Below, piece by piece: positions 1 through 41,781 of a stretch of DNA of 64,000 nt. The notes under the pieces are model-generated. The model ran no database searches, was not told where the DNA came from, and saw nothing but the letters and a program-made list of their open reading frames with translations. The stretch lies in sequence record DRR723986_14244; one strand, written 5' to 3'. The translations under genes were made by a program, and so were the position numbers. Within the stretch, counting starts at the first letter, position 1. The number at the start of each line of letters is the position of its first letter.

Positions 1-43
1 GCCTTTAAAGGCTAATTTTAGACTATAATTTAGAACTGATATT

Positions 44-256: not shown

Positions 257-1140
257 TGGCATTTATAGATTATTATAAAATATTAGGTGTCTCCAAGACG
301 GCTTCTGAAAACGATATAAAAAAAGCATATCGTAAGTTGGCTCGTAAATACCATCCAGACCTCAATCCAAATGACAAGGAAGCTGAGAAAAAATTCAAGG
401 AAATAAACGAAGCTAATGAAGTGTTGAGTAATACAGAAAATCGTAAAAAATACGATGAATACGGTGAGCATTGGCAACATGCGGAAGAATACGAAAAAGC
501 GAAACAACAAGAACACTATCAAAGAAGTACGGGGAACCAATATGGCGGCTATTCTGAAGAAGATTTTTCAGATTTCTTTGGTTCTATGTTTGGTGGACGA
601 TCCTCTCAGTCTCGCGGCCAACAGGTAAAATTTAGAGGCCAAGATTTTAATGCCCAATTACAACTTAATCTAAAGGACGTTTACACCACACATAAGCGCA
701 CGCTAACAGTGAACGATAAAAATATCCGAATCACAATCCCTGCGGGTGTTGAAAATGGACAGACTATTAAAATTAAGGGGCATGGTGGTAAAGGGATAAA
801 CGGTGGGCCTAATGGAGACTTGTATATTGAGTTTTCAATTGTTAATCTAACACCTTTTAAAAGAGATGGAGATAATTTGTATACAACCGTAGATTTAGAT
901 TTATATAAAGCTCTTTTAGGAGGCCACATAACGGTTGATACCTTTGATGGTAAAGCAAAACTCACCATAAAACCAGAAACTCAAAATGGTACAAAAGTAA
1001 AACTCAAAGGAAAAGGCTTTCCGAAGTATAAAAAAGAAGGGCAGTTTGGTGATTTGTATGTGACCTACAACATAAAAACACCTACAAAACTAACCTCCAA
1101 AGAAAAAGAGCTCTTTACTGAATTATCAAAATTAAGATAA
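256..1140 (+). CDS. cbpA: DnaJ-class chaperone CbpA (J domain plus DnaJ C-terminal domain, no Zn finger)
   Basis: N-terminal J domain with HPD motif (KYHPDLN), G/F-rich linker, followed by a CbpM-like gene. Confidence 0.9.
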
Positions 1141-1141
1141 C

Positions 1142-1438
1142 ATGGAAACAACACACCTTATTTCAATACAGCAATTTTGCACCCATTACAATGTTCCAAT
1201 AACGTTTATTAATGCATTACATGAGTACGATTTAGTTGAGATTACCATAACCGATAAGACAACCTATTTAAAAACCAATCAGCTTAACGACGTAGAAAAA
1301 ATGATGCGTCTACACTATGATTTAGATATAAATTTAGAAGGTATTGATGCTATCTATAACCTTCTTAAACGCAATGAAGCATTGCAAAACAAAATTACAA
1401 GACTTCAAAACCGTTTAAAATTTTATGAAGGCCTGTAA
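1142..1438 (+). CDS. cbpM: chaperone modulator CbpM (MerR-like HTH)
   Basis: 98 aa, RLHYDLDINLEG motif, coiled-coil tail, directly after cbpA. Confidence 0.85.
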   Translation: METTHLISIQQFCTHYNVPITFINALHEYDLVEITITDKTTYLKTNQLNDVEKMMRLHYDLDINLEGIDAIYNLLKRNEALQNKITRLQNRLKFYEGL

Positions 1439-1837
1439 TTATCCACCTCGTCTATTGCTATTGCTATTAGATTGTCGTCTTGTGCTACCAGTATTGCTTC
1501 TTCTGGTAGAATGGTATTCTCTTATATTATCACCGAAATAATTATTAACGCGCACCTGTTTGGCACGTCTTAAATTAACAGTATTAAAGCGTTGAGGCAA
1601 TACATTTACAGTAACCCAACCACCATTATTGAGATAGATATACTGTCTAAGCGTTAAATCGTAGTACACATAATATTCTGGGAAATAGATATAACGTACA
1701 TTAACGACACGATTAGGATAAAACCAAGCTGGTGTTGGTTGTGCTGGTCTAGAGGATATAATTACTGGTCCGCAACTTTCTAAACCTGTAATAGTAACCA
1801 AAAAGACTATTATCAAAATAAATTTTGGTACTTTCAT
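1439..1837 (-). CDS. hypothetical lipoprotein
   Basis: Likely start at MKVPKF (1837), lipobox-like LESC, Tyr-rich core, R/S/N-rich tail. Confidence 0.65.
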   Translation of the reverse strand: MKVPKFILIIVFLVTITGLESCGPVIISSRPAQPTPAWFYPNRVVNVRYIYFPEYYVYYDLTLRQYIYLNNGGWVTVNVLPQRFNTVNLRRAKQVRVNNYFGDNIREYHSTRRSNTGSTRRQSNSNSNRRGG

Positions 1838-1886
1838 GATTCTTTTATTTAGACTATAAATGAACTCATAATTAAGTAATACTGAA

Positions 1887-1900
1887 ATGACATTGCTCAT
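1887..1900 (+). promoter_or_regulatory. FNR/Crp-like box upstream of mscS
   Basis: ATGACATTGCTCAT, 22 nt before -7-like TATTTTTA (1923). Confidence 0.65.
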
Positions 1901-1949
1901 TTTTAATCATAAAGCCATCACCTATTTTTACCTAACAAATTAATTTTCA

Positions 1950-2870
1950 ATGACAACAATAGAAGTTATAAACCAATGGATTAAAGACCATCCGTTTATA
2001 TGGAGTATTCTCAAGTTTATAATTATACTATTCATTGTTTTAACTATTATTCAACTTATTAGACGGTATTTAAAAAAAAGAATATCGAGTACTGTTGTCC
2101 GTTATAAAGCCCAAAAAGGTATAGAAATATTGGGCTACACATTGTTAGTTATTTTGGCAATTACGTATTTCTCGGGTTCAATAAAAGACTTTACTATAAT
2201 CATAGGTTTATTTACCGCAGGTCTTGCCTTTACCTTACAAGAACTTATTTTGAGTATTGCAGGTTCCTTATATATTTTTCTCGTAAAAGTTTATAAACCG
2301 GGTGATCGTATTGAAATTAATGGTATTAAAGGAGATGTCATTGATGTAGATAGTATTTATACCACAATGATGGAAATTGGTGAATGGGTCAGTAGTGATA
2401 ATTATAGTGGTAGAATTGTTAAACTCAGTAATGCCTTTGTTTTTAAAGGACCTATCTATAATTACTCACAAGATTTTCCATTTATATGGGATGAATTTAA
2501 TTTACCAATTCGTTATGGCTCTGATATAGATTTGGCAAAATCCATCATTATTAAAATAGCTAAAGAAATACTTTCGGACTTTGTCATAAATTCAAAATCT
2601 GAATGGCAAAGTGTCGTTAATAAGTATTACATTGAGGATGCACAAATAGACCCAACTTTGGCAATAGCACTAACAGATAACTGGATTCAGTTTAACCTAA
2701 GGTACATAGTAGATTTTAAGAAACGTCGTTTAACAAAGCATCTTTTAAATGACAAAATTAGAGCTGAATTTGAAAATACAAACGGTAAAATAATTTTAGC
2801 ATCCACAACGATAGAATTGGTAAAAATTCCCGATCTAAATATTAATTTAGATACCGATAAAAAAACCTAA
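1950..2870 (+). CDS. mechanosensitive channel, MscS family
   Basis: 3 TM segments followed by YKPGDRIEINGIKGDV beta domain. Confidence 0.9.
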   Translation: MTTIEVINQWIKDHPFIWSILKFIIILFIVLTIIQLIRRYLKKRISSTVVRYKAQKGIEILGYTLLVILAITYFSGSIKDFTIIIGLFTAGLAFTLQELILSIAGSLYIFLVKVYKPGDRIEINGIKGDVIDVDSIYTTMMEIGEWVSSDNYSGRIVKLSNAFVFKGPIYNYSQDFPFIWDEFNLPIRYGSDIDLAKSIIIKIAKEILSDFVINSKSEWQSVVNKYYIEDAQIDPTLAIALTDNWIQFNLRYIVDFKKRRLTKHLLNDKIRAEFENTNGKIILASTTIELVKIPDLNINLDTDKKT

Positions 2871-2892
2871 ATAGAAGATAAGCCAATTTTTA

Positions 2893-4860
2893 ATGGAAAA
2901 CGAAACAGAAAAACGCCACAGTCATAGTGGTATTTTGGGAAATACATCAGAACTCTTTTTTGCTATTCTATGCGGCAGTTTTCTGCTAATTGGTTTTTTA
3001 ATAGAAAAATTTACTGCTACAAATGAATGGTATGCGCTATGGAGTTATATCATATCCTATTGTTTTGGAGGCTTTTTTATAACTATTGAAGCCACTAAAA
3101 AAATCGTAAAAGGTGGTTTTGATATCGATTTTTTAATGATAGCAGCAGCTACAGGTGCAGCATATATAGGTAGTTGGGCAGAAGGCGCACTACTTCTCTT
3201 TCTTTTTAGTTTAGGTCACGCTTTAGAGCATTACGCCATGAATAAAGCAAAAAAATCTATTAAAGCGTTAAATGATTTGTCACCTAAGACTGCACTCGTA
3301 AAAAAGGGAGGAAAACTGCAAGAAATACCCATTGACGACTTAAAATTAAACGATATAATTGTTGTAAAACCGCATACAAAAATTGCTGCAGATGGAGTAA
3401 TAATTAACGGCAGTAGCAGTGTAAATCAAGCACCTATTACTGGCGAAAGTATGCCTGTTGACAAAATCTATACTGAAAACACTGAAAGTTTACCAGAGTT
3501 CAATCAAATAGACAAAAAACATATTGTATTTACAGGAACCATCAATGGAGACAGTAGTCTTGAAGTTTTAGTGCTGAAATTAACCGGTGACTCTACTGTC
3601 GCACGATTAATAAAAATGGTAAGTGATGTAGAGACTCAAAAATCACCCACGCAGCGACTGACCAAAAAATTTGAAAAATGGTATGTACCCTTAGTCATTT
3701 TAATGGTATTCTTATTATGTTTTGCTTATCTCCTCATTGACGAGGAATTTAATGCAAGCTTATACAGAGCTATTACCGTGTTAGTGGCCGCAAGCCCATG
3801 TGCCTTAGCTATTTCAACACCTAGTGCTGTGTTAAGTGGTATTGCTAGAGCAGCTCAAAAAGGTGTTCTCATAAAAGGTGGAAAAGCCCTAGAAGATCTT
3901 GGTGAAATTACAACAATGGCCTTTGATAAAACTGGTACCTTAACCGAAGGAAAACCTAAACTTACCAATGTTATTCCTCTAAATAATTTTAATGAAACAG
4001 AATTTATTAAAATCGTTTTGGAAGTGGAAAGTTTAAGCAACCACCCACTCGCCAAAGCCATAGCAAATGATATAAAATTTAAGTATAATATTGAATCTCA
4101 AAACAAAGCTACTAAGGTCCAAGCCATACAAGGAAAAGGCATCAGTGCACAATACAACGACGCTGATGTTTATATAGGCAATGTAAAATTAATGGAGAAT
4201 GTAGGTATACATATCGATGCTGCTATTCTCATAAAAATGGAAAGTCTATTAAGTGATGGTCAAACCGTTATGATTGTTGCTTTCAAGAAAGCTGTAATAG
4301 GTTTAATTAGTGTTATGGATGTACCACGACTTACGGCAGCTTCAACATTAAAAAAACTAAAAGAGATCGGAATTAAACATATGGTAATGCTCACAGGAGA
4401 TCATCAAAATGTTGGTAATGCCATAGCCAAACAAATAGGGCTCACAGAAGCTAAAGGAAACCTTTTACCCGAGGATAAAGTTCATGAAATAAAAGAACTT
4501 ATTAAGACCCATAAAAAAATTGCAATGGTTGGCGATGGTGTTAATGATGCCCCAGCAATGGCCTTGAGTACGGTAAGTATAGCCATGGGAGCTGCCGGAA
4601 GTGATGTAGCATTAGAAACTGCAGATGTCGCTTTAATGTCAGACAAAATTGAAAATTTACCTTTTCTTATAGGTCTAAGCAGACAATCTAAACGTACCAT
4701 AAAACAGAATATTTTTATAAGCTTAGGTGTTGTAACCTTATTGGTTCCTGTAACTATTCTAGGACTTACAAATATTGGCTTAGCCGTTGCTTTTCACGAG
4801 GGATCAACCCTAGTTGTAGTCTTAAATGCATTGAGATTGCTTCGTTATAATCTAGACTAA
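2893..4860 (+). CDS. heavy-metal P-type ATPase, P1B-4 type (Co/Zn/Fe2+)
   Basis: TGES, SPC, DKTGTLT, HP, GDGVNDAP and HEGST motifs. Confidence 0.92.
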   Translation: MENETEKRHSHSGILGNTSELFFAILCGSFLLIGFLIEKFTATNEWYALWSYIISYCFGGFFITIEATKKIVKGGFDIDFLMIAAATGAAYIGSWAEGALLLFLFSLGHALEHYAMNKAKKSIKALNDLSPKTALVKKGGKLQEIPIDDLKLNDIIVVKPHTKIAADGVIINGSSSVNQAPITGESMPVDKIYTENTESLPEFNQIDKKHIVFTGTINGDSSLEVLVLKLTGDSTVARLIKMVSDVETQKSPTQRLTKKFEKWYVPLVILMVFLLCFAYLLIDEEFNASLYRAITVLVAASPCALAISTPSAVLSGIARAAQKGVLIKGGKALEDLGEITTMAFDKTGTLTEGKPKLTNVIPLNNFNETEFIKIVLEVESLSNHPLAKAIANDIKFKYNIESQNKATKVQAIQGKGISAQYNDADVYIGNVKLMENVGIHIDAAILIKMESLLSDGQTVMIVAFKKAVIGLISVMDVPRLTAASTLKKLKEIGIKHMVMLTGDHQNVGNAIAKQIGLTEAKGNLLPEDKVHEIKELIKTHKKIAMVGDGVNDAPAMALSTVSIAMGAAGSDVALETADVALMSDKIENLPFLIGLSRQSKRTIKQNIFISLGVVTLLVPVTILGLTNIGLAVAFHEGSTLVVVLNALRLLRYNLD

Positions 4861-4908
4861 GAACTTCTATTACGTCATTAATTATATTCAATTTATAGTC
4901 AACCTAAA

Positions 4909-4922
4909 CTGATATCTCTCAT
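4909..4922 (+). promoter_or_regulatory. FNR/Crp-like box
   Basis: CTGATATCTCTCAT, 22 nt before TATTTTTA (4945). Confidence 0.65.
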
Positions 4923-4965
4923 TGGCAAGGACTTTTACATTTTCTATTTTTATAAAAAACAGAAA

Positions 4966-5556
4966 ATGCTCACATTCAAAAATTATAATATTGCTGATTG
5001 GTTTTCTTTTTACCGCATTTTTGCCGCTCCATTTTTGATAGTATTAATTTGGTTAGACTATCGCTTACTCTTTACATGGTTGCTTCTCATAAGTTATTCT
5101 ACTGATGCTATAGATGGTTACTTAGCGCGAAAATTGAAACTAGTGAGCGCTAGAGGGTCTCAACTAGATTCTTTTGGTGATCAAATAACCTTAGCTATAG
5201 GACTTATTGGCTTATTTTATTTTGAAAACGAATTTATAAAAACCAATCTTACCTTAATAATTATTGCGTTTATTCCTTATATATTACAAATGATTATTGC
5301 TTATATAAAGTATGCAAAAGCCACTGCTTTTCACACCTATTTAGCTAAATTATCTGCCATAATGCAAAGTATATTTATACTTTACTCCTTATTCTTTTCA
5401 CCTCAATACCATTTGTTTTACATTATGATAATCATTGGATTATTAGAAACGTTTGAAGAGATTATACTTATTTTTATGCACAAGCACTGGACATCTGATG
5501 TTAAAGGCATCATTTGGGCCTACAGAGATCAACGACGCAAAAAACAAAAACAATGA
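4966..5556 (+). CDS. CDP-alcohol phosphatidyltransferase family protein
   Basis: DAIDGYLAR...GSQLDSFGD signature. Confidence 0.9.
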   Translation: MLTFKNYNIADWFSFYRIFAAPFLIVLIWLDYRLLFTWLLLISYSTDAIDGYLARKLKLVSARGSQLDSFGDQITLAIGLIGLFYFENEFIKTNLTLIIIAFIPYILQMIIAYIKYAKATAFHTYLAKLSAIMQSIFILYSLFFSPQYHLFYIMIIIGLLETFEEIILIFMHKHWTSDVKGIIWAYRDQRRKKQKQ

Positions 5557-6812
5557 GGTCCTTTTCTCTATTCACTATTGTGTTACTTTGCTTTGCGATT
5601 ATAATTGTTGATACGCTTGCTTTTTTTTGGCTTCAATCTATTACAAGTCTTATTGATTGGCCTTTAGTAAGAACGACAATTCATAGTCTTTTTTGGATAT
5701 TTACCATAGGACTAATCCTCTCTATTTTAGCTTTAAAACTAACCTTAGATAATATCAATCCTATTAGAAGGCAACAACTCATTTCTAGATTCTATGGTCT
5801 GGCTGTATCGTCTTTTATACCTAAACTGATTTTCGTTATTATCATCTCAATTTTATATTTTAGTAATTATCTTTTTTCTGATAGTGAATCGCTTATCCTG
5901 GTCAATATTATTGGTTTACTTTCTGGTTTTCTTCCATTTTTTGTCATTTTATATGGTATTTTTAAAGCGGTTTATAGATTTAAAGTTTATCATGAAAAAC
6001 TAACATTCGATTCTTTACCACGATCATTTCATGGTTTAAAAATCGTTCAAATTTCAGATCTGCATTTAGGTAGTTTTAATTATAGATTTAAAAAATTGAA
6101 TGAAGCTGTTGAGAAAATCAACCATCTTAAACCAGATTATATTGTATTTACAGGTGATTTAGTAAATAATTATGCCTGGGAACTTAGAGGATGGGCCAGA
6201 GTTTTTAGAAAGCTAGAGGCTAAAAAAGGTAAATATGCGATATTAGGAAATCATGATTATGGTGATTATAGTCAATGGGAATCTCCTTCTGCTAAAGAGA
6301 AAAATTTTAATGACATAAAGAACTTTTTTACAGATATAGGCTTTAATCTTTTATTAAATGAATCTGAAATAGTTAAAAACAAATCCGAAGATATTGCTCT
6401 AATTGGAGTTGAGAATTGGGGGAAACCACCGTTTAAACAATACGGAGATTTAAATATGGCTTTATCTTCTGTAAGGCATATTCCTTTTAAAATTCTGCTC
6501 TCACACGATCCAACGCATTGGTCAGAAAAAGTAATTGATAAGACAGACATTGCTTTGACACTATCAGGACACACACATGGTATGCAAGCTGCATTTCAGT
6601 ATAAAAATTTACAATGGAGCCCAATAAAATATAAATTTAAACAATGGGCTGGATTGTATAAGCATAAGGACCAATATCTCTATGTAAATAGAGGTCTTGG
6701 ATGGCTCGGTTTTCCTGCGAGAATTGGTATGCGACCAGAAATTACAGCCATAGAATTGCAATGTCGTAGCGAACTGATTAAAATCATAGTTTTCTCACTT
6801 TTAATTAAATAA
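5553..6812 (+). CDS. membrane-anchored metallophosphoesterase
   Basis: DLHLG, GDLVN, GNHDY, SHDP, GHTHG motifs; ATG at 5553 overlaps the upstream stop (ATGA). Confidence 0.9.
   Translation: MRSFSLFTIVLLCFAIIIVDTLAFFWLQSITSLIDWPLVRTTIHSLFWIFTIGLILSILALKLTLDNINPIRRQQLISRFYGLAVSSFIPKLIFVIIISILYFSNYLFSDSESLILVNIIGLLSGFLPFFVILYGIFKAVYRFKVYHEKLTFDSLPRSFHGLKIVQISDLHLGSFNYRFKKLNEAVEKINHLKPDYIVFTGDLVNNYAWELRGWARVFRKLEAKKGKYAILGNHDYGDYSQWESPSAKEKNFNDIKNFFTDIGFNLLLNESEIVKNKSEDIALIGVENWGKPPFKQYGDLNMALSSVRHIPFKILLSHDPTHWSEKVIDKTDIALTLSGHTHGMQAAFQYKNLQWSPIKYKFKQWAGLYKHKDQYLYVNRGLGWLGFPARIGMRPEITAIELQCRSELIKIIVFSLLIK
6774..6787 (+). promoter_or_regulatory. FNR-like box
   Basis: CTGATTAAAATCAT (perfect TGAT-N4-ATCA), 22 nt before TAACTTAG (6810). 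Confidence 0.7.
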
Positions 6813-6840
6813 CTTAGATAAACTATCATTTTCAATAGCC

Positions 6841-7296
6841 ATGATTAGAACTCTAAACAAACCCGAACAATTAACGCTTTTAGAAAATAACTACATTGGT
6901 TATCTTTCTTACATCTACAGAAACAGACCCTTTATAGCGCCAATTACTTATTTTTTCAATAAATCTGAGAATGAAATTATTGGTTACTCTGCTGAAGGTC
7001 ATAAAGTAACAGCAATGCGTAAAAATAATAACGTGTGCCTTAATGTTTCTGATGTTGATTCTGTTAATGAATGGAAATCTGTTTCTGCTCAGGGTGTATA
7101 TGAAGAATTAGAAGGTAGTTCTGCTAAGGCCAAACTACATGAATTTTCTTTAGGCGTTAAAGATTTAATTATTAAGAAAGAACATAGAGAACTCGATTTT
7201 ATCAGTCAATTTTCAAGTAAAATATATAAAAATGATATGCCTGTAATTTTTACAATAAAGGTTGAAGAATTAACTGGTAAAATGCGAAAATCATAG
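6841..7296 (+). CDS. pyridoxamine 5'-phosphate oxidase-like flavin-binding protein
   Basis: 151 aa, G-x-L-S...PITY...GHK...NxxVC...WKSV pattern of the split-barrel family. Confidence 0.8.
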   Translation: MIRTLNKPEQLTLLENNYIGYLSYIYRNRPFIAPITYFFNKSENEIIGYSAEGHKVTAMRKNNNVCLNVSDVDSVNEWKSVSAQGVYEELEGSSAKAKLHEFSLGVKDLIIKKEHRELDFISQFSSKIYKNDMPVIFTIKVEELTGKMRKS

Positions 7297-7301
7297 ATTC
7301 T

Positions 7302-8071
7302 ATGTCAGCTACAACAATTACAAATATCACACCTGAGAATGTTATTACAGAATCACTTTTCTGCATTAAAGACATTAAAAAACCAGGATTTGAAAGTAAA
7401 CGTAAATGGTTTATCAAGCGCTTTAATGAGGGACTTAGACTAAAGATTTTAAAAGACCTATCTGGTAAAATGATAGGTTTTATTGAATACGTACCTACAG
7501 AGTTTGCATGGCGACCAATCATTGCGGAAAAATTTATGTTCATTCATTGTATGTATACCGCTTCTAAAAAGATAGAAACCTTGGGTATGGTACATTATTA
7601 ATAAATGAAGTGATTAAAGATGCAAAGTCACAAAACATGTCTGGTGTCTGTGTAATGACTAGTGAAGGATCTTGGATAGCCAACAAATCTATTTGTGAAA
7701 AGGCAGGATTTACCCAAGTCGATAAAAGAGGTCGTTTTGAATTACTATCATATACTTGGAACACAGAAACTTCTGAACCAAAATTAATTGATTGGACACA
7801 GCAGCAACAACACTATAAAGGTTGGCATTTGGTTTATGCAGATCAGTGTCCATGGCACGAAAAATCGGTAGAAGCCTTGCTACATGTAGCAATGGATTTT
7901 GGGATTGATCTTAATATCACAAAACTTAAAACTGCAGAGCAAGCCAAAGAAGCTCCTTCTGGTTTTGGGGTTTTTAGTTTACTCTACAATGGACGTTTAT
8001 TGGAGGATCATTACCTAAGTGCCAAAAGATTTAAAAATATTCTTAAAAAAGAATTAATACAAACTAGGTAA
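7302..8071 (+). pseudogene. frameshifted GNAT/YoaP-like protein
   Basis: Two ORFs (7302-7601, 7610-8071) join into one protein if one A is added to the A-run at 7566-7570 (...ASK-KDRNLGYGTLLINEVIKD); C-terminal QCPW and APSGFGVF YoaP-like motifs. Confidence 0.75.
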
Positions 8072-8073
8072 GA

Positions 8074-8087
8074 CTGATACATATCAT
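8074..8087 (+). promoter_or_regulatory. FNR-like box
   Basis: CTGATACATATCAT, 22 nt before TAAATTAG (8110). Confidence 0.7.
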
Positions 8088-8141
8088 TTTAAAAAAAAAC
8101 TTCAATTTTTAAATTAGGTAGCATATTTAAAATGTGCTATT

Positions 8142-8210
8142 ATGAAAATCTATATCAAACTTGCTATTACGGTCGTAATATTAATATTATTTACAATTTT
8201 TCTCTTATAA
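8142..8210 (+). CDS. putative 22-aa membrane peptide
   Basis: MKIYIKLAITVVILILFTIFLL*, just downstream of the boxed promoter; below the ORF-track cutoff. Confidence 0.35.
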   Translation: MKIYIKLAITVVILILFTIFLL

Positions 8211-8247
8211 CCAAAGTTGTGTCCAAACCAACTAATTACTATTAGTT

Positions 8248-9327
8248 ATGAAATATTTTTTTGGCTTTTTAGTATTAATACACGGCATTATTCATCTCAA
8301 AGGATTTATTGATGCCTTTTTTTCTAGTGGTATTAACCAACAGGTATTAGGAATTTCTAAACCTATCGGGTCACTTTGGCTTCTCACCTTTGTACTATTC
8401 GTTATTTCAGTATTGCAATACTTAACCGATAAGAATTGGTTTTATATAGCGTTTATTGCAGTTGTTTTATCTCAAATACTAATAATAATGAATTGGGATG
8501 ATGCAAAATATGGATCAATATTAAATATTATAATTTTTGTAGTTGGATTTATAGCTTATGGCGAATATAAGTTTAATGCTAAGACAGAGGTCGAAACTTC
8601 ATCATTAATAAATACTGTAACAAAATCAAACAAATTTGTTTCGTTTAATGAAAATGATAAACTCCCAGAAGTAGTTGAAAAATGGTTGGCAAATTCTAAT
8701 GTAAGCGGTCATAGAGAAATTTCTACCGTTAAACTCAAACAAAAAGGTGAAATGCGAACTAAAATTGATGGAAAATGGTTGCCATTTAAAGCGGAACAAA
8801 CGTTTAATCTACAAGACCCGTCTTTTATGTGGGTCACTAGCGTAAAAGCCGCTCCTTTACTCAATTTAAATGGACGTGATAAATTGCAAAATGGTAAAGG
8901 TGAAATGTTAATAAAACTAGCTTCTTTAATACCTGTTGTTAATGAATCCTCTAATGCTAAAATTAATCAAGGAGCCATGTTACGCTTTCTTGCCGAAATA
9001 TGTTGGTTTCCACAAGCCGTATTGCGTCATTATATCTCTTGGGAAAACATTAATAGTAGTTCTGCTAAGGCATCGTTTACTTATAATGATGAAACGGTAT
9101 CTGGTATTTTTAGATTTAATAAAATGAATGATTTTGTTTCTTTTGAAGCTCAGAGGTATTATGGCGGTAAAGAAGATTCTAGTCTCGAAATCTGGTATAT
9201 TGAAACACAAGATTACAAGACCTTTAATTGTATTACAATTCCTTATAAAAATAAAGTCACGTGGAAACTAGACAAGAAAGATTTTCATTGGCTAACGCTA
9301 GAAATAACAGAAATAGATTACAACTAG
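8248..9327 (+). CDS. membrane-anchored hypothetical protein (DUF6544-like)
   Basis: 4 N-terminal TMs, then LKQKGEMR...RFLAEICWFP...AQRY soluble domain. Confidence 0.65.
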   Translation: MKYFFGFLVLIHGIIHLKGFIDAFFSSGINQQVLGISKPIGSLWLLTFVLFVISVLQYLTDKNWFYIAFIAVVLSQILIIMNWDDAKYGSILNIIIFVVGFIAYGEYKFNAKTEVETSSLINTVTKSNKFVSFNENDKLPEVVEKWLANSNVSGHREISTVKLKQKGEMRTKIDGKWLPFKAEQTFNLQDPSFMWVTSVKAAPLLNLNGRDKLQNGKGEMLIKLASLIPVVNESSNAKINQGAMLRFLAEICWFPQAVLRHYISWENINSSSAKASFTYNDETVSGIFRFNKMNDFVSFEAQRYYGGKEDSSLEIWYIETQDYKTFNCITIPYKNKVTWKLDKKDFHWLTLEITEIDYN

Positions 9328-9812
9328 TATCCTAATTTATTTTTGGTATTTGGCACTTCCCATTTTATCATTTCTTTTAAAAACTCATCTACCAATTCTA
9401 TAATTATCTTTTTTGTGATATTAGTAGGATTATAAACGTCTAATTCTATACTGCTCTTATCAATTGGTTGTTGTTCTACGTAAGGGAAAAGAATGAACGT
9501 ATGCACATCTCCCGTATAAGATTGTGAAAAGATTAATGCGCCTCCTTGTACAAATTGATATGCTGGTATTTGATTGGTGCAGTCAATAAGTTCCTTTGGA
9601 AACGAATCGAAGGTAATATTTACAGCTTCATTTGTGCCAATCCAATTTAATTCTTGCACCTTCCAACCTATATCATATTGTTCGCAAATGGCTTTTAAGG
9701 TATTACTAATAAGTGCTTTTGTTTTTGTTTGCCAAATCGTCTTTTTGTCTACCACAGTCTGTATAGAAACCTTATAGTCGTTTATGCGTTCTTCTAAATG
9801 CTCAATTTTCAT
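9324..9812 (-). CDS. hypothetical protein
   Basis: 162-aa ORF at the end of the mla-like operon. Confidence 0.7.
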   Translation of the reverse strand: MKIEHLEERINDYKVSIQTVVDKKTIWQTKTKALISNTLKAICEQYDIGWKVQELNWIGTNEAVNITFDSFPKELIDCTNQIPAYQFVQGGALIFSQSYTGDVHTFILFPYVEQQPIDKSSIELDVYNPTNITKKIIIELVDEFLKEMIKWEVPNTKNKLGY

Positions 9813-9825
9813 GTTTAATTTATTT

Positions 9826-10818
9826 TTAATCTATACTCTTCTTTAATTCTTTCTGTGCTTGTCGCTCTAATTTTTTGAAATAACCACGTGTTAAAAAGTT
9901 ATGCTTTAAAGCTTCCATATTCTGATTAAACTTATCCGTTCCCTCATTAATATTTTTAATTGTAGTTTTTAAATTATTAACTAAAGTGGTATCGTTTAAA
10001 ATATAATTATAAGCGCCATCACTACTATTTATTTTGTTAACAATATCATTAATATTGGTTAGTATATTATTTATTTCATTACTAGATTCATCAAGGTTAC
10101 TAACCACAGTTTTTAATTTTGAGCCAGAAATTGAATCGTTTAACATCATAGCCAAAACCGTATTATCATTAGTTTTTATAGAAGAAATAATTGCATTCAA
10201 CTCATTTATAGTATGCGTAGCTCCGCGACTTGCTTGTTTTAAATTATTAACTGATTGTTTTAGGTCTTGTGCCATAATTGTATCATTCAACAACAATCCT
10301 ACAGTTCCTTTACCTTCTAACATCGCAGTAGTTATTTTTAGTAAATCCGAGGTTAAAATAGCCGCATTCTCAGAACTAACGCTCAATGTACTTAATATGT
10401 CATCTGCACCAATTTTACTGTAAGAATCGATAAAATCGCCATTTGTAATTACGGGAGCAGTACCTTCTCCTGGTACAATATTTACAATCATATTGCCAAC
10501 TAAACCATCTGATCCTATAGTTGCAATTGCATCTTTTTTGATATGTGTTATAATTTTTTTATCAATATGCATATCTATTTTAATTGTAGAGTCATTAATC
10601 ATTGTAATACCCTTTACTGTACCTATATCTATACCAGCGTATCGCACATTATTCCCTTTCTGTAAACCATTTACATTTTGAAAGTAAGAACTCACAGTAA
10701 ATGTCTTTCTAAACATATCCTGCCGTTGTCCTATAAGGTATACCGCTACCATAAACAGTATCGTACTTATAATTACAAAGAGTCCTAGTCGTATTTTTTG
10801 TGAGCTTGAATTTTTCAT
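9826..10818 (-). CDS. mlaD: MlaD/MCE family substrate-binding protein
   Basis: N-terminal TM, GLQKGNNVRYAGIDIGTV MCE motif, helical tail. Confidence 0.88.
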   Translation of the reverse strand: MKNSSSQKIRLGLFVIISTILFMVAVYLIGQRQDMFRKTFTVSSYFQNVNGLQKGNNVRYAGIDIGTVKGITMINDSTIKIDMHIDKKIITHIKKDAIATIGSDGLVGNMIVNIVPGEGTAPVITNGDFIDSYSKIGADDILSTLSVSSENAAILTSDLLKITTAMLEGKGTVGLLLNDTIMAQDLKQSVNNLKQASRGATHTINELNAIISSIKTNDNTVLAMMLNDSISGSKLKTVVSNLDESSNEINNILTNINDIVNKINSSDGAYNYILNDTTLVNNLKTTIKNINEGTDKFNQNMEALKHNFLTRGYFKKLERQAQKELKKSID

Positions 10819-10820
10819 GA

Positions 10821-11582
10821 CTAATGTTTAAAAAATGCTTTAATCTTTGGATCTTTAGATGCAGATAATTCATTGAACGTACCCACAGCATAATCCTTAC
10901 CGTCTATTAGTAATATCATTCTATCAGAAATAACTCTAGCACAATCCACATCGTGCGTTATTATTAATGATGATGTTCCATATTCTTTCTGAATGTCTTG
11001 TATTAGAATAATAATCTCTTTTGCCGTAATTGGATCTAAACCACTTGTTGGCTCATCGTACAATATTATTTTAGGTTGTAATATCAATGTTCTGGCTAAT
11101 GCAATACGTCGTTTCATACCTCCAGATAATTCAGCTGGCATTAAGTCAATAGCATCTACTAATCCTACACTTTCTAATGCCTCAATGACTAATTTTTCTG
11201 TATCCATATTATCACCAAATTTATCGGTATGTCGTCTTAGAGGAAATTCTAAATTCTCTCGTACAGTCATAGAATCATAGAGTGCACTACCTTGAAATAG
11301 AAAACCTATATCAGCTCTCAAAATATCTAATGCTTCTCGTGTTAATTTAGTAATATCGTTATCCATAACTGTAAGAGTTCCACTATCTGCTTCCATTAAA
11401 CCCACTAAACATTTTATCATTACGGATTTGCCTGATCCAGACTTACCCATTATCACCAAATTTTCACCTTGATATAAGGTCATATTAAACCCATTGAGGA
11501 CATGATTGTCTCCAAAGCTTTTATACAAATCCTTTATCTGTAATACTTTAACGCGGTCTGATATGTTATTCTTGGATGTCAT
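10821..11582 (-). CDS. mlaF: ABC ATPase, MlaF family
   Basis: GKSGSGKS, LSGGM, YDEPTSGLDP. Confidence 0.88.
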   Translation of the reverse strand: MTSKNNISDRVKVLQIKDLYKSFGDNHVLNGFNMTLYQGENLVIMGKSGSGKSVMIKCLVGLMEADSGTLTVMDNDITKLTREALDILRADIGFLFQGSALYDSMTVRENLEFPLRRHTDKFGDNMDTEKLVIEALESVGLVDAIDLMPAELSGGMKRRIALARTLILQPKIILYDEPTSGLDPITAKEIIILIQDIQKEYGTSSLIITHDVDCARVISDRMILLIDGKDYAVGTFNELSASKDPKIKAFFKH

Positions 11583-12361
11583 AAATCATAAAAAATATCA
11601 GTAACAAAAACAGCTATAAAATCTATAATAAAGAGTAATAAGGATGTAAATACTACAGCAGAGTTTGCCGCTTTCCCAACACCTGCAGTTCCTTTTTTAC
11701 AGTAGTACCCTTTAAAACAACCCACTAAACCAATTGCTAGACCAAAAAAGAAAGATTTGGCTGTTGCTGGTATTATATCACCAAACTCCAAAGAATCAAA
11801 AACCTGATTAAAGAATAACATAAATGAAACATTACCTTTAACGTTTTCAACCAAAAATGATCCAAACAATGCGATGGCATCTCCAAACACCACTAACAAT
11901 GGTAACATAAACGTTACAGCCAATACTCTTGTTACCACTAAATATTTAAATGGATTTGTGCCTGAAACTTCCATAGCATCAATTTGCTCTGTTACGCGCA
12001 TTGAACCCAATTCTGCACCAATACCAGACCCTATTCTACCTGCACATACCAGCGCTGTAATTATAGGGCCAATTTCTCTTACAATTGAGATTCCAACCAT
12101 AGAAGGCATCCAAGAAACCGCACCAAACTCCATTAAAGTGGGTCTTGTCTGTAGTGTTAAAACTAAGCCTATAATAAATCCTGTAATACCCACAAGTAGT
12201 AAGGATCGGTTACCCATATGATAACACTGTCGGGTAAACTCCTTAAATTCAAAAGGGCGTTTTAAAGCTTCCTTAAAAAAGCGACCTGTAAAAAAAGACA
12301 ACTCACCTATTTCAATGAAGAAAGATTCAACCTGAGTTTTTATGGTGTTAAATACCAACAT
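11579..12361 (-). CDS. mlaE: ABC permease, MlaE family
   Basis: REIGP...GRIGSGIGAELGSMRVTEQIDAMEV signature. Confidence 0.92.
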   Translation of the reverse strand: MLVFNTIKTQVESFFIEIGELSFFTGRFFKEALKRPFEFKEFTRQCYHMGNRSLLLVGITGFIIGLVLTLQTRPTLMEFGAVSWMPSMVGISIVREIGPIITALVCAGRIGSGIGAELGSMRVTEQIDAMEVSGTNPFKYLVVTRVLAVTFMLPLLVVFGDAIALFGSFLVENVKGNVSFMLFFNQVFDSLEFGDIIPATAKSFFFGLAIGLVGCFKGYYCKKGTAGVGKAANSAVVFTSLLLFIIDFIAVFVTDIFYDL

Positions 12362-12411
12362 TTAATACAGTTTATACAAAGTAAATTTAAGGTAATAGTA
12401 GCATCAAGTAA

Positions 12412-12448
12412 ATGATATACATCAGCTATAAGGACTGATTGATATCAT
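12412..12448. promoter_or_regulatory. two back-to-back FNR-like boxes serving divergent promoters
   Basis: ATGATATACATCAG (12412-12425; minus -7 TAAATTTA at 12382-12389) and CTGATTGATATCAT (12435-12448; plus -7 TATTTTAG at 12471); both 22-nt spacing. Confidence 0.72.
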
Positions 12449-12480
12449 TTTAAAGTAACTTAAATACCTCTATTTTAGTA

Positions 12481-12717
12481 ATGAAAATCATAAAAATGAG
12501 AGCAACTGTACACATAGAAAATATAGAGTGTTGTGGTTGTGAGAGAATTATTAGTAGTCTTTCACGAATTTCAAATATTAGTGATGTAGAAGTCAATTCT
12601 TTAGCAAAAACAGTGTCTTTTAATTATCATACAAATCATGATTTTGAAAATGCTAAACATGTGCTTTCAAGAATTGGATATCCAATTGTTGGTAGAGAAA
12701 GCCAGCTATATCTATAA
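12481..12717 (+). CDS. heavy-metal-associated (HMA) domain protein
   Basis: ECCGC metal-binding motif, LSRIGYP terminal loop. Confidence 0.75.
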   Translation: MKIIKMRATVHIENIECCGCERIISSLSRISNISDVEVNSLAKTVSFNYHTNHDFENAKHVLSRIGYPIVGRESQLYL

Positions 12718-12745
12718 GAGCTCTTAATCAAAATTCATTGATAAC

Positions 12746-13663
12746 ATGTACAAGTATTATCTATCAATATCAATTCTCCTTCTAATTTTCTTTAAGTTAG
12801 GTGATATCTCTGAGTTAAATTCTGAAAATCAACTTATTAAAGGAACTTATATTCAAATAAATAAAGATTCAATTACTATTAATAATAATGTTACGATTGA
12901 CACGTATTTTACATTCATTGATTCATTAGTTACAAAATATGATTCACTGACGTCCTATCCACTTTCTGAGCATTTATTAGTTAGGTTAAACCCATGGATT
13001 ATAGATACTCTTAAAAACACAGATTATTATTTAATGAAAGTAAAGGATTCATTCATCTACGATCAAAAAAAGATGATTGCATTACCAAAAGGAAATATGA
13101 TAATAATACCTGATTCGCTCAATGCTGGCAAAATGCAATCTAATTTTAAAAACACAATGCTTGATATTAACATACCAGAGTTTAAATTCCGTATCTATGA
13201 AGATTCCATTTTACTATATGAATTTCCGATTAGAGTCGGTCAAAATAGAAAAAGGTACTTAGAAATGTCAGGAAGAGTTCAAGATTTAAGGACGATTTCT
13301 GGAGAAGGTAAAATTGTAAATCATATTAGAAATCCTTGGTACATAAATCCAGTAGATAATCACCGATACAAATTCACTAAACGTGATGATGGAAAAACTA
13401 CAAAACTGCCTCAAATACCTTTCATTGAAACTGAAATAAACGGTTTTAGACATGGTCAATTAATTCATCCTACAACAAATCCAAATACGCTAGGCAAAGC
13501 GCACTCAAATGGTTGTATTGGAACCAATGAAGCAGATGCCTGGATTATTTATTACTATGCGCCAATTTCAACACGAATACATATCAGATATGATTTACAT
13601 CAAGAAAATGAAAAAGGAGATACAATTGTACTTAAAGATATTTATAACTTAAAAAAATCTTAA
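12746..13663 (+). CDS. L,D-transpeptidase (YkuD family)
   Basis: INIPEF..., IHPT...LGKAHSNGCIG catalytic motif. Confidence 0.85.
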   Translation: MYKYYLSISILLLIFFKLGDISELNSENQLIKGTYIQINKDSITINNNVTIDTYFTFIDSLVTKYDSLTSYPLSEHLLVRLNPWIIDTLKNTDYYLMKVKDSFIYDQKKMIALPKGNMIIIPDSLNAGKMQSNFKNTMLDINIPEFKFRIYEDSILLYEFPIRVGQNRKRYLEMSGRVQDLRTISGEGKIVNHIRNPWYINPVDNHRYKFTKRDDGKTTKLPQIPFIETEINGFRHGQLIHPTTNPNTLGKAHSNGCIGTNEADAWIIYYYAPISTRIHIRYDLHQENEKGDTIVLKDIYNLKKS

Positions 13664-13667
13664 TCAG

Positions 13668-14663
13668 CTAATCCGTTAGCTCGTTCTCAGTATTAATGTT
13701 CTTTTCCCAACAATTGAGATTATAAATTGTAGTTTCTGCAATATTAGTCAAAGCTTCTTCAGTTAAAAATGCATGATGACCAGTAATTAAAACATTTGGA
13801 AAAGCATGTAAATTAATCAGCATATCATCGTCATATGGAATATCTAAAGAATGGTCTTTAAAAAAGACTCCCTTCTCATTTTCATATACATCTATACCTA
13901 ATGCACCTATTTTTTTAGATTTTAATCCTTCAATGATGTGACTAGTATTCAAAACAGCTCCTCTTGCCGTATTTATTATCACCACACCATCTTTCATTTC
14001 TGAAATAATATCTTCATTGATAAGATAATGAGTATCCTCATTTAATGGTACGTGTAAAGAAATAATATCTGATTCAGCGCATAAATTCACCAAAGATGTG
14101 TACTTCATATTATATTTATTTTCCAATTCTTCATTTAGATCTATATCATATCCCAATAACTTACAACCAAATCCATGCATAATTTTACTCATCACAGATC
14201 CAATTTTACCAGTTCCTATTATACCAACAGTTTTTTCGTTTAAATCATATCCTACTAATTGATTTATATTAAAATTAAACTGAGATACGCGTCTACTGGA
14301 TTCAATTAATTTTCTATTAATTGCCAGTAATAAGGCGACTGCATGTTCCGCAATGGCATAAGGAGAATACGAAGGAACATTAGCCACTTTTATGCCTAAT
14401 CTTGAAGCCGCTCTTAAATTCACATTATCATACCCAACTGAACGTAAAGTGATATATCTTACACCAAAATCCTTTAGTTTTTCGATAGTTAAGAAACAGG
14501 CTTCATCTGCTGAAAAAATAGATATCACATCATAACCAACAGCCTTTATAGCTGTTTTAGACTTTAAAGCATCCTTTATAAATGTAAGGTTATGTTTTTT
14601 TGAATTTGCTTGTTTTAAATATGGAATTTCAAATTCCCTAGCACTATAAACTAGAACTTTCAT
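13668..14663 (-). CDS. ldhA: D-lactate dehydrogenase-like 2-hydroxyacid dehydrogenase
   Basis: VPSYSPYAIAEH, GTGKIG, INTARG, DVYENE, TGHHAFLT. Confidence 0.85.
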   Translation of the reverse strand: MKVLVYSAREFEIPYLKQANSKKHNLTFIKDALKSKTAIKAVGYDVISIFSADEACFLTIEKLKDFGVRYITLRSVGYDNVNLRAASRLGIKVANVPSYSPYAIAEHAVALLLAINRKLIESSRRVSQFNFNINQLVGYDLNEKTVGIIGTGKIGSVMSKIMHGFGCKLLGYDIDLNEELENKYNMKYTSLVNLCAESDIISLHVPLNEDTHYLINEDIISEMKDGVVIINTARGAVLNTSHIIEGLKSKKIGALGIDVYENEKGVFFKDHSLDIPYDDDMLINLHAFPNVLITGHHAFLTEEALTNIAETTIYNLNCWEKNINTENELTD

Positions 14664-14713
14664 GGCAATTGTTATTAGATAAGTAAAACTATCTAATTCT
14701 TAAAAGCCTTGAA

Positions 14714-14727
14714 ATGATATTGCTCAT
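14714..14727 (-). promoter_or_regulatory. FNR-like box upstream of ldhA
   Basis: ATGATATTGCTCAT, 22 nt from minus-strand TAGTTTTA (14684-14691). Confidence 0.65.
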
Positions 14728-14748
14728 ATTAAAAGCACGGTGAAGCAA

Positions 14749-14777
14749 CAAAAAACCCACAACAGGCGTTGTGGGTT
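14749..14777 (-). terminator. intrinsic terminator, probably the pre-integration tRNA-Ser terminator
   Basis: AACCCACAAC/GTTGTGGGTT stem with T-run on the minus strand, just beyond the duplicated tRNA 3' end. Confidence 0.7.
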
Positions 14778-14784
14778 CAATTTT

Positions 14785-14813
14785 GCGGAGAAAGAGGTAA
14801 GTGAACCTCTTTC
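14785..14813. repeat. att site (tRNA-distal end)
   Basis: 13-bp copy of the tRNA 3' end plus GAACC after a 5-bp gap; perfect 9-bp inverted repeat GAAAGAGGT-N6-ACCTCTTTC (14790-14813). Confidence 0.88.
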
Positions 14814-14857
14814 GTAGTGCCTTTATTTATTACTGTTTCAGTCCTGTACCATTGTTG

Positions 14858-14876
14858 GGTCACCTAATAGGTCACC
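14858..14876. repeat. putative integrase arm-binding tandem repeat
   Basis: GGTCACCTAATAGGTCACC, identical to 36362-36380. Confidence 0.8.
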
Positions 14877-14904
14877 TTTATACCTTGTAGTAAAGATAAG
14901 GAAT

Positions 14905-15093
14905 TTACTTGATTAATCCTTGTACTTTACTGATTTCAAAGCCCATAAAGTCGCAAAATTCATCGATAGTAACTAACTGATGAGCTTCTTTGTTTAGGCG
15001 TTCTTTAATCGCTTTGATTATTGTTCTGCCATAACGCTCACTCTTTCCTGTTACTACCTGCACGTCTTTAGGGTAAATACAGATTCTACTCAT
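14905..15093 (-). CDS. small hypothetical protein, possibly DNA-binding
   Basis: 62 aa, IYPKDVQVVTGKSERYGR HTH-like segment, at the element end. Confidence 0.65.
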   Translation of the reverse strand: MSRICIYPKDVQVVTGKSERYGRTIIKAIKERLNKEAHQLVTIDEFCDFMGFEISKVQGLIK

Positions 15094-15302
15094 TCACTTT
15101 AAATTTAAAATTAATACTCTAACTATACTTTATCCATACCGTTGCTATAAAGCACTTATATACAATATACGACTAATATCCCATTGAAAAAACTAACTAA
15201 ATCGGAAGTTTTGGCAACTTATAAACACTACGGAAGCACCCTAATACATTGACAGTCAATAGCTCGTATATTTGATATTCATCATCAAAAAATATATTAG
15301 TT

Positions 15303-16052
15303 ATGGCAAAATTAAAAGGTATTATTAAGTTAGAAGGAACGTTAGACAATCTAACTTTTTACAAAGCAAAAGAGGGTTATTTAGTAAAAACTAAAGGCGG
15401 TGTTTCTAAAGAGCGTATTCAAAATGACCCAGCGTTTGAACGTACTCGTGAAAACGGTTCAGAATTTGGAAGTTCTGCATCATCTGGTAAGTTATTGAGA
15501 ACATCAGTTAGAAACTTGATGATTAGAGCAAAAGATAATCGAGTTTCAAGTCGTGTTACTCAAAAAATGACACAAATTAAAAATTTTGATACAACCTCTG
15601 TAAGAGGACAAAGAAATGTCGCTACAGGTTTAGCAACACCAGAAGGTAAAGCTACATTAAAAGGCTTGGATTTCAATAATAGAGCCATTTTAAGTGCTGT
15701 TTTATTCGCTCCGTTTACTGTAGATGGTGCAACTGGTGAAATTACGATTCCAAATTTAACACCTACCAATGATATTGCCTATCCAAGTGGCGCAACACAC
15801 GTAAGTTTAAGTTCAGCATTTCTAAAAGTTGACTTTGATACAACAGATAACGCAATCGAATACAGTCCAACTGTAAATATTCCGATTGATTCAACCTCTG
15901 CAACTCAAACACTAACGCCCGCAGGTGTTCCAACAGGCACAGGAAACGATATATTCGTTTTATTGGTTGAGTTCTTCCAAGAGATTAACGGTGTTCAGTA
16001 TCCGCTTAAAAATGGCGCATATAACGTTTTAAATATCGTTGAAGTAGCATAG
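15303..16052 (+). CDS. hypothetical element-backbone protein
   Basis: 249 aa, basic N-half and beta-rich acidic C-half; -7 box TATATTTG at 15267 and terminator downstream. Confidence 0.8.
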   Translation: MAKLKGIIKLEGTLDNLTFYKAKEGYLVKTKGGVSKERIQNDPAFERTRENGSEFGSSASSGKLLRTSVRNLMIRAKDNRVSSRVTQKMTQIKNFDTTSVRGQRNVATGLATPEGKATLKGLDFNNRAILSAVLFAPFTVDGATGEITIPNLTPTNDIAYPSGATHVSLSSAFLKVDFDTTDNAIEYSPTVNIPIDSTSATQTLTPAGVPTGTGNDIFVLLVEFFQEINGVQYPLKNGAYNVLNIVEVA

Positions 16053-41711: not shown

Positions 41712-41725
41712 ATGACATTCGTCAT
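41712..41725 (+). promoter_or_regulatory. FNR-like box upstream of SLC13-pckA
   Basis: ATGACATTCGTCAT palindrome, 22 nt before TAACTTTA (41748). Confidence 0.7.
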
Positions 41726-41781
41726 AATAATTGGTTGCTATTGCCTGTAACTTTACAGTATACTTACAGATAGTAGATACT

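Follow-up and report, generated by a model that had tools for sequence, protein, structure and literature searches.

In the class II promoters of Escherichia coli, FNR or CRP occupies a site (for FNR, the box TTGAT-N4-ATCAA) centered at −41.5, the classic position for this class and the canonical one for activation. The FixL-FixJ-FixK pathway of rhizobia and Caulobacter joins a haem-PAS kinase (FixL), a receiver with a LuxR-type output (FixJ), and a separate Crp/Fnr-type protein (FixK). In Mycobacterium tuberculosis, the haem kinases DosS and DosT work with the response regulator DosR (DevR) on a gene set that includes universal stress proteins (Usp), alpha-crystallin, PfkB, an Acg-type nitroreductase, an NrdZ-type reductase, a cation ATPase, and CBS proteins, and LOV histidine kinases take part in general stress responses (Brucella LOV-HK, Caulobacter LovK, and Bacillus YtvA). 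The lxa locus of Burkholderia cenocepacia, according to the accessible text of its description, comprises 50 genes whose induction at low O2 reaches 240-fold, and a TGA-N6-TCA motif precedes most of its operons, at 17 intergenic points (PMC3721108). Here we describe a stretch of 64,000 nucleotides (nt) of a marine flavobacterium, from sequence record DRR723986_14244 (hereafter the window, meaning the whole stretch analyzed), in which every operon over about 13 kb begins with the same palindromic site at a fixed promoter distance. The arrangement recurs in related Flavobacteriaceae, where it points to a receiver-fused FNR-type activator.

A fixed promoter geometry in the window and its relatives

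The initial annotation had placed seven 14-bp boxes in the window (1887, 4909, 6774, 8074, 12412, 12435, and 14714), each exactly 22 nt from a TAnnTT(T/A)(A/G) element in the direction of the downstream gene. All seven lie where it placed them, those at 12412 and 14714 as minus-strand readings, and the spacing holds at all seven. A scan of the window under the spacing constraint (MTGA-N6-TCAT-N22-TAnnTTWR) returned eight composite sites: the same seven and one at 41712 on the plus strand. Dinucleotide-preserving shuffles gave a mean of 0.03, and none of 100 reached eight; because the pattern was derived post hoc from the same sites, this figure flatters them, and independent support was sought in relatives. 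A position weight matrix (PWM) trained solely on the relatives’ sites and then run over the window picks exactly these eight, with scores of 22.8 to 27.4, and also scores the reverse reading of the box at 1887 to 1900 at 18.0. One of 20 mononucleotide shuffles reached 22.8, so that the score by itself does not make the weakest site, 41712, significant. The inverted repeat with its TGA-N6-TCA core (TTGAT-N4-ATCAA class) is present at all eight, and Rfam and tRNA scans of the window found two tRNAs only and no RNA element accounting for the boxes.

Searching with the metallophosphoesterase of the island recovered 80 related loci (1.40 Mb), mostly from Flavobacteriaceae, the closest being Winogradskyella metagenome-assembled genomes (MAGs) at 72 to 77% identity. 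These loci hold 369 composite sites, with at least one in 65 of the 80. Spacing is essentially invariant: among 549 oriented boxes, the −7 box stands at exactly 22 nt in 270, at 21 nt in one, and at 23 nt in none, and for the core TGA-N6-TCA, counted over the 80 loci and the window, 408 sites fall at 22 nt versus 8 to 34 at each spacing from 18 to 21 and from 23 to 26. The logo of the 369 unique sites reads AA-[A/C/T]TGAT-N4-ATCAT-TT, followed by an information-free spacer and TAnnTTT(A/G); the consensus first proposed had captured the palindromic core and was slightly too narrow around it. Although the box is palindromic, its promoter-proximal flank is far more constrained, with T at position 14 in 361 of 385 sites and A at position 1 in 146. 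Divergent promoters are faced on both sides by 20 of 388 distinct boxes, as expected of a symmetric dimer, the textbook state of Crp-family proteins. Homologues of the metallophosphoesterase, 60 to 73% identical, also occur in Crocinitomicaceae (Brumimicrobium), in Chitinophagaceae MAGs, and in one MAG labeled Acidimicrobiia, a label that may be a binning error; most of these loci are without composite sites.

Maps of transcription start sites (TSSs) in Flavobacterium psychrophilum, in the accessible part of their report, place the sigma-A −7 box at −12 to −5 (PMC9723704), which puts box positions 7 and 8 at −42 and −41 and the center of the inverted repeat at −41.5 from the implied TSS. The boxes that the initial annotation had set near the −33 region thus appear to occupy a class II position. 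Its description of the promoters as weak agrees with their anatomy. Exact TAnnTTTG occurs at 93 of the relatives’ 346 sites and at none of the eight in the window, the commonest form being TAnnTTTA (157 of 346); under a scan that required TAnnTT, 75% of sites have T at position 7, and at position 8 A occurs in 52% and G in 41%. The −7 element is, in other words, a sub-consensus form of the Bacteroidota sigma-A motif, and TTG at the −33 position is rare (50 of 346). Lacking a −33 TTG and bearing a mostly nonconsensus −7 element, these promoters should be poor without help, and the prevalence of TAnnTTTA may be a signature of activator dependence in Bacteroidota. We hold with high confidence that the boxes would be functional FNR-type activator sites in a class II arrangement.

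A receiver-Crp hybrid as candidate regulator

In the relatives, the islands encode a hybrid of about 350 amino acids (aa) that unites Response_reg, cNMP_binding, and HTH_Crp_2 domains in one polypeptide. Its gene lies immediately downstream of a PAS-HisKA-HATPase kinase gene, and the order kinase, hybrid regulator, composite site, tandem Usp is conserved. One full-length orthologue was found in each of genomes G002 to G005, within a site-dense region; in G002, the closest relative, it lies 1.6 kb past the end of the syntenic locus, and the kinase/hybrid pair would fall about 6.5 to 7.5 kb before window base 1 if synteny holds. The receiver (Response_reg match at E about 1e-29) has LLIEDD, CDIMMP, FLSAKT, and YITKPF invariant in 22 aligned orthologues, so that the conserved acidic pocket, phospho-Asp, S/T, and K of response regulators are all present (DD/D/S/K). 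The recognition helix reads (A/T)E(T/S)xIR. In comparisons with solved structures, the Crp half finds its matches among FNR-type regulators (E about 1e-14) and the receiver half among ordinary receivers, with no solved chain spanning both. The hybrid is not FNR sensu stricto: a receiver, rather than an Fe-S Cys cluster, forms its N terminus.

With 7931 clusters at E <= 1e-30 among the 8000 candidates scored, this is a large family, and its members bear generic names only. We found no published study of a receiver-Crp regulator or of this regulon in Flavobacteriaceae in a search that left subscription journals and supplements outside. As far as their accessible parts go, a review of CRP does not mention a receiver fusion (PMC10187061), one article covers MalR-like proteins only (PMC8510549), a Dokdonia preprint has nothing on this system (10.1101/2023.12.25.573297), and the F. 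psychrophilum report mentions neither Crp nor Fnr (PMC9723704). The RgzAB system of Flavobacterium johnsoniae was considered as well; judging from the part of the preprint at hand, it involves a single-domain receiver and is unrelated (10.64898/2026.07.01.735801).

Some genomes hold more than one such protein. Loci L051 and L057 (1147 to 2149 and upstream) carry a further receiver-Crp regulator, a paralogue with about 45% identity whose partner is an 868-aa multi-PAS kinase with a LOV domain (NCNFLQ), and about ten of the sampled genomes have two receiver-Crp regulators. The complete Maribacter genome G001 (locus L034) also has two copies (C1:2680724-2681765 and C1:1694382-1695367), seen as adjacent or overlapping partial matches in different frames; these are possibly frameshifted genes.

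Sensor domains of the adjacent kinases

The first PAS domain of the kinase matches the haem domains of FixL and DosP (FixL structure 1d06 at E = 2.6e-13), and the column of the proximal His, which we take to be the haem ligand, is conserved. Among 26 regulator-adjacent kinases, 22 have a FixL-type haem PAS by sequence, 13 of these being Lutibacter-like and so not independent. The other four have, at the start or elsewhere in the protein, a LOV domain (NCRFLQ or NCNFLQ) that matches solved LOV domains at E 1e-31 to 1e-38; the kinase of the window’s closest relative is one of them. Given a haem PAS in most kinases and LOV in four, most genera probably respond to O2 and some to blue light. The window itself encodes a Blh-type beta-carotene dioxygenase and a bacteriorhodopsin-family protein; its organism probably lives as a rhodopsin photoheterotroph, a point of relevance to the LOV kinase of the closest relative.

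Co-occurrence and rival readings

Co-occurrence was examined in 151 genomes of the family, with tests that correct neither for common descent nor for incomplete MAGs. Of these genomes, 72 have the hybrid (E <= 1e-40). Generic composite sites reach a median of 24.5 with the hybrid versus 11 without it (controls, 4 and 3), a moderate separation. Such sites are thus not exclusive to the hybrid, and this revealed a second, FNR-like regulator. This paralogue, the best Crp match in genomes without the hybrid and present in 94 of the 151 genomes including G002, has about 225 aa, a recognition helix TESAIR, and an N-terminal CxxC..C motif that suggests an Fe-S O2 sensor. The initial annotation had proposed one Crp/Fnr-type activator; the family stands, but there are two candidate regulators with the same geometry, and the hybrid is likelier than a classical FNR/CRP. 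Response regulators did figure among the proteins that the annotation had named for testing.

The sequence beyond the box helps to tell the two apart. For boxes with T[T/G] directly behind them, the median is 8 in genomes with the hybrid versus 2 in those without it (area under the curve 0.91, p = 4e-18); in genomes without the hybrid, boxes are followed by A or G. Genomes with neither regulator (n = 24) have medians of 0.5 T[T/G]-flanked sites and 3.5 with other flanks, which is the background; the corresponding medians are 2 and 15 with the FNR-like protein only (n = 55), 7 and 14 with the hybrid only (n = 33), and 10 and 21 with both (n = 39). Expressed per genome, the hybrid goes with about 8.7 additional T[T/G]-flanked sites and the FNR-like protein with about 3.1. 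Gene content follows the same line: an orthologue of the island MlaE occurs in 46 genomes, 39 of which have the hybrid (odds ratio 12, p = 1e-9). Composite sites also gather near the hybrid gene (11 of 16 in G054, 8 of 12 in G011, and 5 of 10 in G118). From its domain make-up, genomic position, and co-occurrence, we consider it fairly probable that the receiver-Crp regulator and its PAS kinase serve the seven island boxes.

The foremost alternative assigns these boxes to the classical FNR-like paralogue, acting by itself or alongside the hybrid, in the way that rhizobial FnrN and FixK use the same anaeroboxes. The paralogue is encoded by the closest relative and by most of the sampled family, its helix TESAIR matches the TETxIR of the hybrid, and genomes that have it alone carry a median of 17 composite sites versus 4 in those with neither. 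About 38 nt before the start codon of its own gene (L087 to L089) stands ATGATATTTGTCAT, without a −7 element at 22 nt, which looks like autoregulation, as known for E. coli fnr. The eighth site of the window, 41712, has an orthologous site upstream of a 77%-identical transporter both in G054, where the hybrid is present, and in G067, where it was not found; 41712 probably belongs to a separate FNR-like regulon. The island is another matter. Its MlaE is not associated with the FNR-like paralogue (odds ratio 1.05, versus 12 with the hybrid) and was not found in four of five hybrid-less genomes checked, the T[T/G]-flanked sites rise more with the hybrid, and the FNR-like gene lies outside the islands, the hybrid inside. 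We regard this alternative as unlikely, though as a serious contender.

A second alternative makes the boxes operators, at which a Crp/Fnr-family protein or another dimer would occupy the −35 region and block RNA polymerase. The box does abut the position of a would-be −33 element, some Crp/Fnr proteins repress from overlapping sites, and the box before the FNR-like gene, lacking a −7 element at 22 nt, fits autorepression there. A repressor does not, however, need single-base-rigid phasing (26 and 30 sites at 21 and 23 nt beside the 408 at 22 nt), promoters of this make-up would be poor unaided, and −41.5 is where established class II activators bind; we consider repression improbable. That the composite is an extended promoter of an alternative sigma factor or a dispersed repeat without regulatory role is least credible of all: rigid spacing of two conserved blocks is also typical of sigma-factor promoters, but here the upstream block is a 14-bp palindrome conserved in both halves and in 20 cases used bidirectionally, the downstream block is an ordinary sigma-A −7 motif, flanks and spacers are not conserved as a mobile repeat would have them, and site counts track Crp/Fnr-family regulators.

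Against the assignment of the island boxes to the hybrid stand, besides the neglect of ancestry and completeness in the tests, several observations. The window encodes neither regulator nor kinase: Pfam finds no Crp/Fnr protein among the 59 open reading frames (ORFs) examined, in keeping with the initial annotation, and tblastn of the window with the regulator and the kinase sensors gave nothing better than E = 1.8. It is from synteny that we infer the presence of the hybrid in this organism. Seven of the 46 genomes with the island MlaE gave no regulator hit, 11 regulator-less genomes have six or more T[T/G]-flanked sites, and four regulator-bearing ones have two or fewer. The flank rule separating the two site types is statistical, and site 6774, within the island, has the “other” flank. 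The FNR-like paralogue, with its equivalent helix and very similar box, could bind some or all of the seven boxes, and its presence alone is accompanied by about 11 further composite sites in a genome. The first base of the box is T in Lutibacter and C or A in other genera, without a matching change in the helices (ETFIRT versus ETLIRT/ETFIRT). Conservation, lastly, is uneven: a site lies within 300 nt of 17 of the 64 CDP-OH transferase orthologues with upstream sequence, and upstream of 3 of 8 orthologues of the D-lactate-type dehydrogenase (LDH), 3 of 17 of YkuD, and neither of two of MscS.

Genes of the island and of the wider regulon

Together, promoters P1 to P7 (Table 1) cover every gene between 1439 and 14663, the first of these, a lipoprotein-like ORF, possibly through the box at 1887 to 1900 read backwards. 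That ORF may use the reversed box despite its degenerate −7 element; in 14 related loci, clustering of downstream ORFs places a full composite site before members of its family. Implied leaders are 9 to 22 nt at six of the window sites and about 126 nt at 8074, and the box centers of P5 and P6 are 23 bp apart. The CbpA-DnaJ/CbpM-like pair at the start of the window is probably part of the island, with a composite site that would lie just before window base 1; in locus L003, one stands 279 nt upstream of the DnaJ start. An upstream composite site accompanies 40 of 43 MlaE, 4 of 4 DUF6920, 8 of 11 CbpA, 7 of 13 PNPOx-like, 2 of 3 HMA-like, and 1 of 2 P-type ATPase orthologues.

Table 1. Composite sites, their predicted targets, and other features of the window
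Feature	Coordinates	Strand	Site	Predicted targets or annotation
P1	1887..1930	+	box ATGACATTGCTCAT, 22 nt, −7 TATTTTTA; PWM 26.1	MscS 1950-2870; P-type ATPase 2893-4860 (Pfam); implied TSS near 1935
Candidate divergent promoter	1857..1900	−	box 1887-1900 backwards ATGAGCAATGTCAT, degenerate −7 TTCATTTA	possibly lipoprotein-like ORF 1439-1840
P2	4909..4952	+	box CTGATATCTCTCAT, 22 nt, −7 TATTTTTA	CDP-alcohol phosphatidyltransferase 4966-5556; metallophosphoesterase 5553-6812 (Pfam)
P3	6774..6817	+	box CTGATTAAAATCAT, 22 nt, −7 TAACTTAG; within 3′ end of phosphoesterase ORF	PNPOx-like 6841-7296; 99-aa ORF 7302-7601; YoaP-like 7610-8071 (Pfam)
P4	8074..8117	+	box CTGATACATATCAT, 22 nt, −7 TAAATTAG	DUF6920/DUF6544 protein 8248-9327 (Pfam)
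P5	12382..12425	−	box CTGATGTATATCAT, 22 nt, −7 TAAATTTA	MlaE 12361-11579; ABC ATPase (MlaF) 11582-10821; MlaD 10818-9826; 162-aa ORF 9812-9324 (Pfam)
P6	12435..12478	+	box CTGATTGATATCAT, 22 nt, −7 TATTTTAG	small HMA-like protein, probable start 12496, end 12717; YkuD L,D-transpeptidase 12746-13663
P7	14684..14727	−	box ATGAGCAATATCAT, 22 nt, −7 TAGTTTTA	D-2-hydroxyacid (D-lactate-type) dehydrogenase 14663-13668 (Pfam)
Eighth composite site	41712..41755	+	box ATGACATTCGTCAT, 22 nt, −7 TAACTTTA	downstream: CitMHS/TrkA-C transporter 41782-43620; phosphoenolpyruvate carboxykinase 43632-45269
CbpA-type DnaJ	256-1140	+		Pfam
MerR_2/CbpM-like modulator	1142-1438	+		Pfam
Integrated element	14785-36494			about 21.7 kb; 13-bp direct repeat GCGGAGAAAGAGG at 14785 and 36482
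Tyrosine integrase	34994-36244			in integrated element, beside tRNA-Ser
tRNA-Ser	36480-36567
Blh-type beta-carotene dioxygenase	47181-48053	−
Bacteriorhodopsin-family protein	48158-48898
CorA, first ORF	59810-60616			268 aa; matches CorA profile
CorA, second ORF	60647-60895			82 aa; matches CorA profile

The relatives widen the picture. The first downstream ORF was clustered for 377 sites, 351 of which had one, and Pfam was run on 37 cluster representatives and on all 115 ORFs of five loci. The commonest families are the MlaE operon (41 loci) and tandem universal stress proteins (41 sites in 35 loci), followed by a WG-repeat lipoprotein (21), the CDP-OH transferase (18), the ribosome hibernation factor HPF (13), patatin (12), a TerB-like protein (12), the PNPOx-like protein (11), and DUF302 (10). 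DeoC, BON/OsmY-like proteins, CbpA-DnaJ, PfkB, Hsp20, an M50-CBS protease, CBS pairs, a cation ATPase, D-LDH, and YkuD also recur, and the islands further carry an Acg-type double nitroreductase, an NrdZ-like reductase, thioredoxin, and peroxiredoxin. By analogy, we read these genes as a stasis and low-oxygen, dormancy-like set; the low-oxygen/stress module that the initial annotation had imagined in the window finds a counterpart in this conserved set around the boxes of relatives.

Public data contribute little on transcription: of 21 runs listed, 19 contain part of the stretch, and two are RNA libraries, available as contigs, with 27 and 12 short low-depth pieces on 1 to 16000 without usable starts. 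The deepest RNA-library contigs (depths 13.8 and 12.8 in the two runs) span 14780 to 15135; just before 14780/14784, where an integrated element has its left end, their sequence departs from that of the window. They could represent another junction, an excised form, or a small transcript. The element directly adjoins P7, the D-LDH promoter, and its cargo comprises an RND/CusB-type efflux system, a second P-type ATPase, MerT-HMA, a Fur-family regulator, and a TonB-dependent receptor. Elsewhere in the window, CorA is split into two ORFs that match the CorA profile in order, possibly through a frameshift, a stop, or a sequencing error.

A proposed pathway and its significance

In the explanation that we favor, a dimeric FNR-type (Crp/Fnr-family) activator would bind the boxes at −41.5, its promoter-proximal half-site abutting or overlapping the place where these weak sigma-A promoters of Bacteroidota lack a −33 element. 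The PAS histidine kinase encoded beside the hybrid, both genes lying outside the window, would phosphorylate it at low O2 (haem-PAS kinase) or in blue light (LOV kinase), and the phosphorylated hybrid would activate every operon between 1439 and 14663. These operons would belong to a more extensive dormancy-like island, to which Usp, HPF, Hsp20, BON, CbpA, and PfkB are added in relatives. Taking all these steps together, we lean slightly toward a one-step pathway in Flavobacteriaceae, in which a soluble PAS kinase, its sensor swapped between haem and LOV in different genera, would act through a receiver-fused FNR-type activator at −41.5 on a dormancy/stress island of 10 to 50 promoters, the equivalent in Bacteroidota of the DosR and lxa regulons. 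All operons over the 13 kb described here would depend on it, and with an FNR-like paralogue at promoters of the same geometry there would be two O2/light regulons that overlap.

In the sea, Flavobacteriaceae play a major part in breaking down algal and particulate organic matter, and they encounter steep gradients of O2 and light there. The present analysis offers a concrete predicted regulon with a defined DNA site and a strict promoter architecture that can be scanned for genome-wide, together with a candidate sensor-regulator pair whose domain design has no studied member in the literature searched. Its target list is rich in proteins of unknown function or role (DUF6920, the PNPOx-like protein, the Mla-type transporter, and tandem Usp). 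It is also, to our knowledge, the first large set of predicted activator-dependent Bacteroidota promoters with single-base-fixed geometry, useful for studying the recruitment of the unusual sigma-A of Bacteroidota and for inducible expression tools in bacteria that are hard to engineer.

Comparison with known systems

The promoters themselves most resemble the class II promoters of E. coli: in both, a TGA-N6-TCA inverted repeat centered at −41.5, here from the implied TSS, overlaps the −35 region of a promoter without a good −35, and in both the (here predicted) ligand is a dimeric Crp/Fnr-family protein with an E..R recognition helix. The partner here is the Bacteroidota sigma-A −7 element of the TAnnTTTG type, not a −10/−35 pair. 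The outer positions of the box, [A/C/T]TGAT...ATCAT, differ from those of the E. coli FNR box, the spacing is essentially invariant in hundreds of sites, and the favored regulator has a receiver in place of the Fe-S N terminus of FNR.

As an island, the locus recalls lxa, likewise a contiguous stretch of tens of genes rich in Usp, small heat shock proteins, phospholipid-binding/BON-type proteins, a cation ATPase, an ABC transporter, and regulators. The lxa locus belongs to a different phylum and promoter type, its candidate regulators are Anr-like CRP-family proteins and separate two-component systems, and the text at hand mentions neither a receiver-Crp fusion nor a fixed promoter distance (PMC3721108). 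Gene content also links the islands to the DosR regulon, the same gene families recurring downstream of the boxes in relatives. DosR, however, has a NarL/LuxR-type output, GAF-haem sensors, and a different motif, whereas by Pfam the output of the hybrid is Crp-type and its predicted sensors are PAS-haem. With the LOV stress kinases, the closest relative of the window shares a photoactive-Cys LOV domain (NCRFLQ) apparently coupled to a stress regulon; those kinases act via PhyR/EcfG or sigma-B partner switching, not via a receiver-Crp activator at −41.5.

The signaling logic comes closest to FixL-FixJ-FixK. Both have a FixL-type haem-PAS kinase, here by sequence, a phospho-receiver step, and a Crp/Fnr-type protein acting at TTGA-N6-TCAA-like boxes on low-oxygen targets, the latter two predicted here. 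In some genera, including the closest relative of the window, the haem PAS of FixL is replaced by a LOV domain, and FixJ and the separate FixK are replaced by one receiver-Crp/Fnr polypeptide, so that one transcriptional tier of the Fix cascade would be missing here.

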